The notes beneath the pieces were generated by a model. The model was not told the DNA's origin, ran no database searches, and saw only the letters and a program-made list of their open reading frames with translations. This document shows positions 39,165 to 42,918 of a stretch of DNA of 64,000 nucleotides, piece after piece. The translations under genes were made by a program, and so were the position numbers. This DNA comes from Escherichia coli. GTDB taxonomy: Bacteria > Pseudomonadota > Gammaproteobacteria > Enterobacterales > Enterobacteriaceae. Position 1 is the first letter of the stretch; every line of letters starts with the position of its first letter. The DNA is taken from the NCBI RefSeq assembly GCF_050920415.1, contig NZ_CP169309.1. One strand, written 5' to 3'.

Positions 39165-40037
39165 ATGACAGTATTCAACAAATTTGTTAGAAGTTTTAAA
39201 TCTCATTGGTTGTTGTATCTTTGTGTTATTGTTTTTGGTATTACGAACTTAGTCGCCTCTTCCGGAGCGCATATGGTTCAGCGATTGCTGTTCTTCGTTC
39301 TGACCATCCTGGTTGTTAAACGTATATCATCCCTTCCGCTTCGCCTGCTTGTTGCCGCATCATTTGTGTTACTGACAGCGGCAGACATGAGTATTAGCCT
39401 CTATTCATGGTGTACCTTTGGTACAACTTTCAATGATGGATTTGCGATTAGTGTGCTGCAGAGTGATCCGGATGAAGTTGTCAAAATGCTGGGGATGTAT
39501 ATCCCTTATCTATGTGCTTTTGCCTTTTTATCCCTTCTTTTTTTGGCAGTAATAATAAAATATGATGTTTCCTTGCCGACGAAAAAAGTGACAGGAATAT
39601 TATTGCTGATTGTCATTTCGGGCAGTTTATTTTCCGCTTGTCAATTTGCTTATAAAGATGCAAAAAATAAAAAAGCGTTCAGTCCATATATACTAGCGTC
39701 GCGATTTGCTACCTATACACCGTTTTTCAATCTCAATTATTTTGCTTTAGCAGCGAAAGAGCATCAAAGATTACTCTCAATTGCAAACACGGTGCCGAAT
39801 TTTCAATTATCAGTCAGGGATACAGGTATTGATACCTACGTGTTGATTGTGGGGGAGTCTGTACGTGTCGACAATATGTCTTTGTATGGATATACACGCT
39901 CTACGACACCGCAAGTCGAAGCACAAAGAAAACAGATCAAACTGTTTAATCAAGCAATAAGCGGTGCACCTTACACTGCGCTGTCGGTTCCCCTTTCTTT
40001 AACTGCTGATTCTGTTTTGAGTCATGACATTCATAAT
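39165..40037 (+). pseudogene. yhbX: yhbX, 5' fragment (putative phosphoethanolamine transferase / sulfatase-family inner membrane protein), interrupted by IS insertion
   Basis: AT-rich ORF with N-terminal TM helices; reading frame runs into the IS left end and stops at 40052; joining 40037 to 42166 after removing the IS and one repeat copy restores a continuous frame (...SHDIHN/YPDNIINMANQAGF...). Confidence 0.85.
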
Positions 40038-40138
40038 TGTCAGCGCCAATGATATAAGACAGTAATTCACCATTTGGATTGTCCGCTCCACCCAACATGT
40101 TGTTTCCTTAAGGTTCCTACACCACAAAGGGAACACTC

Positions 40139-41310
40139 ATGCTGAGCAGAGAGGACTTTTACATGATAAAGCAAATGCGCCAGCAAGGTGCGTATATTGT
40201 TGATATTGCCACTCAGGTTGGTTGCTCTGAGCGGACTGTCAGACGGTACCTGAAATACCCGGAACCTCCGGCCAGAAAAACACGCCACAAAATGGCCAAA
40301 CTCAAGCCGTTCATGGACTATATCGACATGCGTCTGGCTGAGAATGTCTGGAACGGCGAGGTCATCCTGGCGGAAATCAAAGCGATGGGTTATACCGGTG
40401 GCCGTTCCATGTTGCGTTACTACATCCAGCCCAAACGTAAGATGCGGCCATCGAAGAAAACGGTTCGCTTCGAAACTCAGCCCGGTTACCAGCTACAGCA
40501 TGACTGGGGAGAAGTTGAGGCTGAGGTTGCCGGGCAACGATGCAGGGTTAACTTCGCGGTTAATACGCTGGGGTTCTCACGTCGCTTCCATGTCTTCGCG
40601 GCACCAAAGCAGGATGCTGAACATACCTATGAGTCACTGGTCCGCGCCTTTCGCTACTTCGGCGGCAGCGTGAAAACCGTGCTGGTCGATAACCAGAAAG
40701 CCGCAGTGCTGAAAAATAACAACGGGAAGGTGGTGTTCAACTCCGGGTTCCTGCTGCTGGCCAATCACTATGGCTTCCTGCCACGGGCCTGCCGTCCACG
40801 AAGGGCCAGAACCAAAGGTAAGGTGGAACGGATGGTGAAATACCTCAAGGAAAACTTCTTCGTCCGGTACCGCCGGTTCGACAGCTTCGCCCATGTTAAT
40901 CAGCTACTGGAGCAGTGGATGGCTGACGTTGCCGACAGGCGGGAACTTCGCCAGTTCAGGCAGACACCGGAACAGCGCTTCACGCAGGAACAGGTGCATC
41001 TGCAGGCGCTGCCAGGTACGGACTTCGATACCAGCTACTTCGATATCCGTCATGTCTCCTGGGATGGCTATATCGAGGTTGGCGGGAACCGTTACAGCGT
41101 GCCGGAAAGCCTGTGTGGCCAGCCGGTATCAATACGGATCTCGCTGGATGATGAACTGCGATTTACAGTAATGAGCAACAGGTAGCATTGCACCGTCTCT
41201 GTTCGGCTGTATACGGCTGGCAGACCGTGCCGGAGCATCACGCCCCACTCTGGCAGCAGGTCAGTCAGGTGGAACACAGGCCGTTGAGTGCCTATGAGGA
41301 GCTGTTGTGA
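40139..41310 (+). pseudogene. istA: IS21-family transposase IstA, apparently frameshifted near the 3' end
   Basis: 348-aa ORF (40139-41185) with N-terminal HTH and DDE integrase core; the remaining ~43 codons (...VALHRLCSAVYGWQTVPEHHAPLWQQ...) lie in the -1 frame and end at a TGA overlapping the istB ATG; frame switch required between 41155 and 41182. Confidence 0.7.
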
Positions 41311-42104
41311 TGCATGAACTGGAGACACTGCTGGGTCGTCTTAAAATGGAACATCTGGGCTACCACGTTGAAAGCCTGCTGGAGCAGGCGGCCAAAAAAG
41401 AACTGAACTACCGCGAGTTCCTGTGCATGGCGTTGCAGCAGGAATGGAACGGGAGGCATCAGCGCAGTATGGAGTCCCGGCTGAAACAGGCCCGCTTCCC
41501 GTGGGTCAAAACGCTGGAGCAGTTCGACTTCGGCTTCCAGCCAGGTATCGATCGTAAGGTCGTCCGTGAGCTGGCCGGGCTGGCGTTCGTGGAGCGTAGC
41601 GAGAACGTGATCCTGCTGGGTCCGCCTGGTGTGGGTAAAACGCACCTGGCAGTCGCTCTCGGGGTAAAAGCGGCGGACGCTGGTCATCGGGTGCTGTTCA
41701 TGCCACTGGATAAGCTGATCGCCACACTCATGAAGGCAAAACAGGAAAACCGGCTGGAAAAACAGCTACAGCAGCTTGGTTATGCCCGGGTACTGATACT
41801 GGATGAGATAGGCTATCTGCCGATGACCCGCGAGGAAGCCAGTCTGTTCTTCCGGTTGCTGAACCGTCGATATGAAAAAGCGAGCATCGTGCTGACGTCA
41901 AATAAAGGGTTCGCCGACTGGGGAGAGATGTTCGGCGATAACGTGCTGGCAACGGCAATCCTGGATCGACTGCTACACCACTCAACCACACTGAACATCA
42001 AAGGAGAAAGCTACCGGTTAAAGGAAAAACGCAAAGCGGGAGTGCTGGCAAAAAACGCCACGCCAATCAGTGATGATGAAATGGCGGCAAGCGGACAACA
42101 TTAA
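41310..42104 (+). CDS. istB: IS21-family helper ATPase IstB
   Basis: 264 aa from ATG 41310; Walker [12 protein letters not shown] and Walker B LILDEIGY; start overlaps the istA-frame stop (TGATG). Confidence 0.88.
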
Positions 42105-42165
42105 TGACCAATAGCGGACATTAAAAATGGCGAAAAACGGCCAATAATCTTGGCGTTGACATAAT

Positions 42166-42918
42166 TACCCGGACAACATTATTAATATGGCTAATCAAGC
42201 AGGATTTCAGACTTTCTGGCTAAGCTCGCAATCCGCTTTTCGGCAGAATGGTACAGCAGTTACCAGTATCGCCATGCGCGCCATGGAAACAGTCTATGTC
42301 AGAGGATTTGATGAATTGTTGTTGCCGCATTTATCGCAAGCGTTACAGCAAAAGACGCAGCAAAAGAAACTGATTGTTCTTCATTTAAATGGAAGCCATG
42401 AACCGGCTTGTAGCGCCTATCCGCAATCCAGCGCCGTGTTTCAACCACAGGACGATCAGGATGCCTGCTATGACAACTCCATTCATTACACAGATAGTTT
42501 GCTAGGTCAGGTTTTTGAATTATTAAAAGATCGCCGAGCCTCGGTCATGTATTTTGCCGACCATGGCCTGGAACGCGACCCGACGAAGAAGAACATTTAT
42601 TTTCATGGAGGCAGGGAGGCCAGCCAGCAGGCATATCATGTTCCGATGTTTATCTGGTATAGCCCCGTTCTTGGGGATGGCGTGGATCGCACAACGGAAA
42701 ACGATATCTTTTCCACTGCTTACAATAATTACCTTATTAATGCGTGGATGGGGGTAACAAAGCCGGAACAGCCGCAAACGCTGGAGGAAGTGATTGCACA
42801 CTATAAAGGAGATTCACGGGTTGTAGATGCAAACCATGATGTTTTCGATTTTGTGATGCTAAGAAAGGAGTTTACTGAGGATAAGCAAGGTAACCCCACC
42901 CCTGAAGGGCAGGGTTGA
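42166..42918 (+). pseudogene. yhbX: yhbX, 3' fragment (sulfatase-family catalytic domain)
   Basis: Frame continuous with the 5' fragment once the IS is removed; the track ORF begins at internal Met 42187; convergent with argG. Confidence 0.85.

Follow-up and report, generated by a model that had tools for sequence, protein, structure and literature searches.

The phosphoethanolamine transferases EptA, EptB, EptC (CptA) and MCR-1 consist of five N-terminal hydrophobic segments and a sulfatase-fold domain, and YhbX of Escherichia coli has the same design and keeps the Glu, Thr, His and Asp-His positions of these enzymes. For YhbX itself no substrate, activity or function has been established (PMC4013655). 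Here we describe yhbX as it is found in a 64,000-nucleotide (nt) stretch of the E. coli contig NZ_CP169309.1 (assembly GCF_050920415.1), which we call the window, where the gene is split by the insertion sequence (IS) ISEc62 and lies in a variable slot between the tRNA gene leuU and argG. We regard it as highly probable that the locus is best explained as a null allele of yhbX, made by the IS, within a horizontally acquired cassette.

The inserted element and the slot have described counterparts as well. The element resembles the IS21 family (IS21, IS100) in its istA/istB gene pair, its TG...CA termini, the multiple subterminal repeats, the 4-bp target-site duplication (TSD) and a length of about 2.1 kb. 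It differs from the annotated ISEc62 copies in that its IstA is truncated to 348 amino acids (aa) by a 1-bp deletion, and from other ISEc62 insertions in its site, which is met in no complete E. coli genome (5426 genomes). The slot resembles the variable islets adjacent to tRNA genes, i.e. it lies directly downstream of a tRNA gene, is AT-rich, has alternative, unrelated cargo and shows sharp shared breakpoints. In contrast to such islets it is only about 2 kb long and holds one gene, and its occupation by yhbX is nearly fixed (95% of genomes) instead of sporadic. It also differs from a classical tRNA-linked genomic island, as the yhbX cassette has neither an integrase nor tRNA-derived border repeats, and its left breakpoint is past the terminator, outside the tRNA gene.

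The split of yhbX by ISEc62

The native frame of yhbX starts with the ATG at 39165 and runs for 291 codons, to 40037, after which foreign DNA follows. The open reading frame (ORF) continues into the IS as far as a stop codon at 40050-40052, giving a product of 295 aa; the gene resumes with codon 292 (TAC) at 42166 and terminates with its own stop codon at 42916-42918. When positions 40038-42165 (the IS and one TAAT) are deleted, a 1626-nt ORF is obtained that shows 0 differences in 1626 nt from the intact yhbX of E. coli MFDS1022581, and over 6273 nt including the flanks there is 1 difference from this strain (IS removed). The gene has been cut between its codons 291 and 292 by the transposition of ISEc62 to a TAAT target within it. 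The preliminary description of this DNA had placed the disruption after about 291 codons and proposed a comparison with the intact YhbX of about 541 aa. The position was right, with the break made by ISEc62 at 40037/40038, and excision restores a 541-codon gene identical to the MFDS1022581 allele. The C-terminal end of the truncated product, HNCQRQ, had been regarded as an IS-derived tail; this is correct for C-Q-R-Q, the only residues contributed by the IS, and incorrect for H290 and N291, which are native to yhbX. The insertion is recent and clean, with no decay afterwards, since neither fragment differs by a base from the intact allele of MFDS1022581.

The ends of the insert are TGTCAGCGCCAA...TTGGCGTTGACA, and its terminal inverted repeats (TGTCAGCGCCAA and TGTCAACGCCAA) match at 11 of 12 positions. 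The subterminal repeat TGTCCGC occurs 43 nt from the left end, and 42 and 65 nt from the right end. Over its full length the insert is 98.3% identical to copies that NCBI annotates as 'IS21-like element ISEc62', and 99.8% identical to the copy in MFDS1022581. The istA product matches the equivalog model NF033546 (transpos_IS21) with 280.7 bits against a cut-off of 160, the istB product matches NF038214 (IS21_help_AAA) with 297.3 bits against a cut-off of 200, and ISEc62 is carried by at least 708 of the 5426 complete E. coli genomes. At the yhbX site a TSD of either 4 or 6 bp could be read; we settled on 4 bp because two other ISEc62 copies are flanked by 4-bp TSDs (AGCA and CGAC).

The deletion in istA (GG to G, at about 41159 relative to the reference) leaves 341 native and 7 out-of-frame residues instead of 390. 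Adding back the missing G gives the full 390-aa IstA, i.e. the frameshift costs the C-terminal 49 residues. A sequencing error was considered as its cause and found less likely, the site being a change of GG to G in no long homopolymer and with real substitutions around it; the frameshift is probably a true mutation. To judge from its reading frames the copy in yhbX may no longer be autonomous, and other ISEc62 copies could supply IstA in trans. The closest copy, that of MFDS1022581, has an intact istA and a frameshifted istB, so the two closest copies are crippled in different genes. At the left junction (40024-40053) the yhbX sequence ATGACA and the IS sequence AATGAT, 18 nt apart, form a promoter-like arrangement that points into istA (consensus match only).

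The YhbX protein and its two pieces

The five hydrophobic segments of YhbX lie within residues 16-162 and are followed by the sulfatase-fold domain (PF00884, precomputed for YhbX clusters). Against the EptA, EptB, CptA and MCR models the matches remain far under every curated cut-off, the NCBIfam scores being 156 (cut-off 500), 145 (404), 125 (561), 108 (493) and 96 (660). The closest solved relatives are E. coli EptC (5zzu), Neisseria NmEptA (5fgn) and MCR-1. These matches bear out the earlier view of YhbX as a sulfatase-family paralogue of EptA and EptB. As the scores stay below the curated cut-offs, YhbX should not be named EptA, EptB or EptC; the scores mark it as a separate paralogue and not as an equivalog of any of them, and it belongs to a subfamily of its own whose nearest relatives, among the matches listed, are in Leminorella, Hafnia and Buttiauxella.

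The alignment to full-length NmEptA spans residues 41-460, and in it the motifs GES and ...YTALSVP of YhbX align with GET and ...STAHSLP, so that E231 corresponds to the Glu of GET and T271 to the Thr of STAHSLP. Both are among the invariant columns of a 12-member subfamily alignment, together with H364, H369, D423, H424 and H438. From the structures of EptA and MCR-1 we take E231 to be the equivalent of a metal ligand and T271 that of the nucleophile, and the His and Asp-His residues presumably complete the active site as they do in these two enzymes.

The break lies inside the periplasmic catalytic domain and leaves E231 and T271 on the membrane stub and the five His and Asp residues on the 3' piece. 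We infer that the 295-aa membrane-anchored stub is inactive, because it is parted from the residues that complete the active site. In the 3' piece the longest ORF begins at the internal Met299 (ATG at 42187). No Shine-Dalgarno-like sequence was seen upstream of this ATG, and no hydrophobic segment or signal sequence was seen in the C-terminal piece. With no anchor in the membrane, no signal sequence and no ribosome-binding site, the piece would be neither exported nor efficiently translated, and yhbX::ISEc62 is accordingly best described as a predicted null allele.

Composition of yhbX and the leuU-argG slot

The reconstructed yhbX has a guanine-plus-cytosine (GC) content of 0.427 and a GC content at third codon positions (GC3) of 0.415, which correspond to z-scores of -3.75 and -2.97 relative to the 52 other genes of the window (mean GC 0.523, standard deviation 0.026; mean GC3 0.558, standard deviation 0.048). 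The 5' fragment, with a GC of 0.395 and a GC3 of 0.361, is the lowest of the real genes in the window, and the 3' fragment is milder (0.465 and 0.478, respectively). The codon-usage distance (Karlin B) of yhbX from its pooled neighbours is 0.463, and the maximum among the neighbours is 0.395 (genes of at least 240 codons). The preliminary description had called both the gene and its upstream region AT-rich and had proposed a check of GC and codon usage against the flanking genes. By this check the gene is clearly distinguishable, whereas the spacer between leuU and yhbX (38746-39164), with a GC of 0.387, falls within the range of the other intergenic regions of the window (0.37-0.51) and is not unusual by itself. 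The position given for the start of the AT-rich region, 38750, did turn out to be a true cassette breakpoint (38750/38751).

Of the 5426 complete E. coli genomes, 5178 have yhbX and 248 lack it, and the secG-leuU segment is present in 5425. About 250 of these genomes, E. coli FDAARGOS_943 and UTAK-5 among them, carry a 1169-bp AT-rich cassette (GC 0.371) that fills the leuU-argG interval instead of yhbX. This cassette encodes, on the opposite strand, a 317-aa helix-turn-helix (HTH) protein (WP_001012978.1) that is unrelated to YhbX; its domain match is limited to the N-terminal HTH (PF12844, E = 5e-5), no NCBIfam match was found, and the PADLOC matches were marginal and confined to the HTH. 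The homology between the two haplotypes stops just past the leuU terminator and resumes at 42924/42925, at the argG stop. Without the IS the yhbX cassette (38751-42924) is about 2.05 kb long and contains only yhbX and its upstream spacer. No integrase was found in it, and the regions 38600-38800 and 42840-42990 have no exact direct repeat of at least 9 nt in common.

Relatives of YhbX were collected by an alignment-based scan in which each species was represented by one genome and, for distant relatives, by a search of representative proteins clustered at 50%. The best 120 homologous proteins are all 98-100% identical E. coli alleles. The closest relative among the matches listed is that of Leminorella grimontii (66%), and the others listed are in Hafnia (48%), Buttiauxella (42-44%), Enterobacter, Citrobacter and Lelliottia (36-38%) and Proteus and Providencia (32-35%). 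None of the best 45 relative loci has argG, secG, glmM, folP, ftsH, rimP, nusA or leuU within 6 kb. A phylogeny of this enzyme group has been published (PMC4013655); it includes YhbX of E. coli, and neither Salmonella LT2 nor C. rodentium has an entry for the protein in it. The L. grimontii relative has a GC of 0.482, above that of its own, locally AT-rich flanks (0.446), which is unlike most relatives. A 33%-identical relative with a GC of 0.397 and flanks of 0.518 is found in CP089930.1, deposited as E. coli strain E69, and is either a rare accessory gene or part of a mislabelled genome. It was dropped as a standard E. coli paralogue that would support a low GC as a family trait, having no megablast match in the 5426 complete genomes.

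Within E. coli, yhbX differs by about 2.4-2.5% from the K-12 and O157:H7 alleles, and the neighbouring genes are 94-99% identical. Among the codons that differ from these alleles, 8 out of 37 and 13 out of 39 are nonsynonymous in yhbX, against 0-2 of about 20-80 in the neighbours. The core-like divergence indicates a long residence in E. coli, and the share of nonsynonymous changes suggests a relaxed constraint on yhbX, even in intact alleles. The older horizontal acquisition that had been proposed from the AT-richness is thus supported from other sides, i.e. by the unrelated cassette in the same slot, by the non-syntenic and patchily distributed relatives and by the core-like divergence. We infer from these sequence comparisons the following course of events. 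Before the diversification of E. coli, a yhbX cassette would have been acquired into the slot bounded by the terminator of leuU and the stop codon of argG, and it would then have been inherited vertically under a constraint weaker than that of the housekeeping neighbours. Recently, as the junctions show, a copy of ISEc62 transposed into the gene at TAAT, and the split of the catalytic domain would have left an inactive stub and an unexported 3' piece, i.e. a null allele.

Alternative explanations, neighbourhood and meaning of the loss

A number of points weigh against the reading of yhbX as an acquired gene that was inactivated by ISEc62. Ten of the 14 YhbX relatives examined are 2-12 GC points under their own flanks, in hosts whose GC ranges from 0.38 to 0.56, and the low GC could in part be a family trait rather than the signature of a donor. 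The cassette, without an integrase or border repeats of 9 nt or more, does not indicate a mechanism of acquisition, and either of the two cassettes may be the ancestral one at this slot. The scan for relatives lists at least 600 stretches, E. coli's own yhbX not being among them, so absences from genera are unproven by it. The inactivity of the two fragments is argued from homology, and the check for a second copy of the gene covers 64 kb of the genome. The first of these points can be carried further, to the view that the low GC is altogether a property of the family (caused, for example, by selection for low expression, H-NS-type silencing or membrane-protein composition) and that yhbX is ancient, has come down by vertical descent and has been lost from most relatives of E. 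coli. The divergence of yhbX within E. coli, which is like that of the core neighbours, is in line with this view. However, the GC deficit is greatest at synonymous third positions (GC3 0.361-0.415), and because of this the amino-acid composition does not explain it. Moreover, an unrelated AT-rich cassette replaces yhbX at identical breakpoints in about 250 genomes, argG, secG, glmM and leuU are not neighbours at any of the best 45 relative loci, and the closest relative among the matches listed is in Leminorella and not in a sister genus. We therefore consider purely vertical descent unlikely and favour the acquisition of yhbX as a cassette.

Other explanations concern the split itself. Even though misassembly at IS elements is a well-known problem, and a 321-bp probe of the left yhbX-IS junction found a match of at least 80% coverage in 0 of the 5426 complete E. 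coli genomes, it is hardly credible that a repeated IS was mis-joined into a gene that is really intact. The element is surrounded by a perfect 4-bp TSD of the same length as at the two other ISEc62 insertions, and the draft assembly of E. coli STEC_7v independently shows the same left junction and 295-aa ORF on a contig that ends inside the IS (AEXD01000019.1), which argues against misassembly; the same truncated protein is deposited as EGE62954.1 (STEC_7v) and OTB63272.1. In all, the exact allele is met in only two assemblies, of which STEC_7v is one. We also give very little credit to the possibility that YhbX still works as two polypeptides, the stub and a C-terminal piece made from Met299 by read-out transcription from the IS. 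On its right side the IS ends in a perfect outward-facing -35 hexamer, TTGACA (42156-42161), with TATTAA 18 nt downstream, and IS21-type elements form junction promoters from such ends; a weak outward consensus promoter, TTAAAA-16-AATAAT, is present at 42121-42148. Nevertheless, the hybrid promoter at the right junction was not accepted by the promoter scan, whose hits are in any case 9/12 consensus matches found at about twice the shuffled expectation and no evidence of function. A transcript starting from TTGACA-18-TATTAA would begin downstream of the ATG at 42187, this ATG has no Shine-Dalgarno sequence, the C-terminal piece has neither a hydrophobic segment nor a signal sequence to bring it to the periplasm, and the active-site residues are shared out between the two pieces. 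With both of these explanations set aside, a clean insertion that yields a null allele is the reading we adopt.

The features of the locus are collected in Table 1. The gene order in the window is that of a standard E. coli, ftsH-folP-glmM-secG-leuU(tRNA)-yhbX-argG(opposite strand)-metY-rimP-nusA. Promoter-like sites upstream of yhbX are found at 39104-39142 (consensus match only), and a permissive Rfam scan of 38000-45000 returned two tRNAs and the rimP leader only, the AT-rich spacer upstream of yhbX being empty.

Table 1. Coordinates of yhbX, ISEc62 and the borders of the slot in the window
Feature	Coordinates	Strand	Remarks
tRNA-Leu (leuU)	38622..38705	+	left core border of the variable slot; Rfam tRNA match 52.8 bits; tRNA-Leu annotated in syntenic E. 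coli genomes
leuU intrinsic terminator	38716..38745	+	terminator scan: 13-pair stem and T-run; conserved sequence stops just past the T-run, at 38750
AT-rich non-coding upstream part of the yhbX cassette	38751..39164	+	missing in alternative-cassette genomes; presumed location of the yhbX promoter
yhbX 5' fragment, codons 1-291	39165..40037	+	five hydrophobic segments and first ~90 catalytic-domain residues including E231, T271
TSD, left copy, TAAT (4 bp)	40034..40037	.	duplication flanking ISEc62
ISEc62 (IS21 family), 2124 bp	40038..42161	+	same orientation as yhbX
istA transposase gene, frameshifted	40139..41185	+	NF033546; alignment to reference copy
istB helper AAA+ ATPase gene, apparently intact	41307..42104	+	NF038214; reference IstB = 264 aa
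TSD, right copy, TAAT (4 bp)	42162..42165	.	duplication flanking ISEc62
yhbX 3' fragment, codons 292-541	42166..42918	+	H364, H369, D423, H424, H438 on this piece
argG	42926..44269	-	right core border of the slot; convergent with yhbX, stop codons 7 bp apart

Some observations on the surroundings can be added. The glmM gene (36710-38047) is only 93.95% identical to that of K-12 and 95.4% to that of O157:H7, with 79 and 60 synonymous codon changes, respectively, while folP, secG, argG and nusA near it are 97-98.5% identical to their K-12 and O157:H7 counterparts; glmM may represent an imported recombination tract. In FDAARGOS_943 an IS4-like element, ISEc60, sits between ftsH and folP, and the neighbourhood is otherwise conserved.

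The pair argG-yhbX is one of the listed convergent gene pairs with overlapping transcripts (PMC12288877). It is conceivable, albeit improbable, that leuU-argG is a two-state replacement locus whose occupant, yhbX or the HTH gene on the opposite strand, sets the convergent antisense transcription into argG, and that the ISEc62 insertion changes it. If this were true, the 2.1 kb of ISEc62 with its outward TTGACA end, placed between the yhbX promoter and argG, would alter the antisense transcription at the 3' end of argG, and the expression of arginine biosynthesis would be changed in the lineage that carries yhbX::ISEc62.

yhbX is dispensable in nature, since 248 complete genomes lack it and other IS elements have hit it, with independent interruptions by IS3, ISSen4 and IS1A in other complete E. 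coli genomes. The suggestion that its loss could matter for the envelope is weakened by this dispensability. A full-length copy elsewhere would change the picture; none is present within the 64-kb window, and for the remainder of the genome one may argue by analogy from the 5178 E. coli genomes with yhbX, in which the copy number is 1-2 with a median of 1. As yhbX is monocistronic, convergent with argG and dispensable, we expect the phenotype of its loss to be small or conditional. In a published screen six knockouts, that of yhbX among them, gave a raised PpspA-lacZ read-out; five of these were dismissed by the authors as envelope or permeability effects or as reconstitution of the rpoN locus, the category of yhbX being left unstated (PMC4551910). 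The intergenic regions flanking yhbX serve several laboratories as neutral insertion sites.

Taken alone, the finding matters little, as it is an ordinary, recent IS21-family insertion that would inactivate a dispensable and compositionally foreign gene. Mildly new is the exact definition of the two-cassette slot between leuU and argG, a polymorphism that represents a clean, well-bounded, small acquired islet without an integrase. The junction can serve as a lineage marker for STEC_7v-like strains. Finally, yhbX::ISEc62 would provide a natural null allele that can be matched with MFDS1022581, an intact and near-isogenic strain (1 difference over 6.3 kb), and this intact/null pair could be used for profiling modifications of lipid A and the lipopolysaccharide core, osmoregulated periplasmic glucans and enterobacterial common antigen, as well as for polymyxin or permeability tests.

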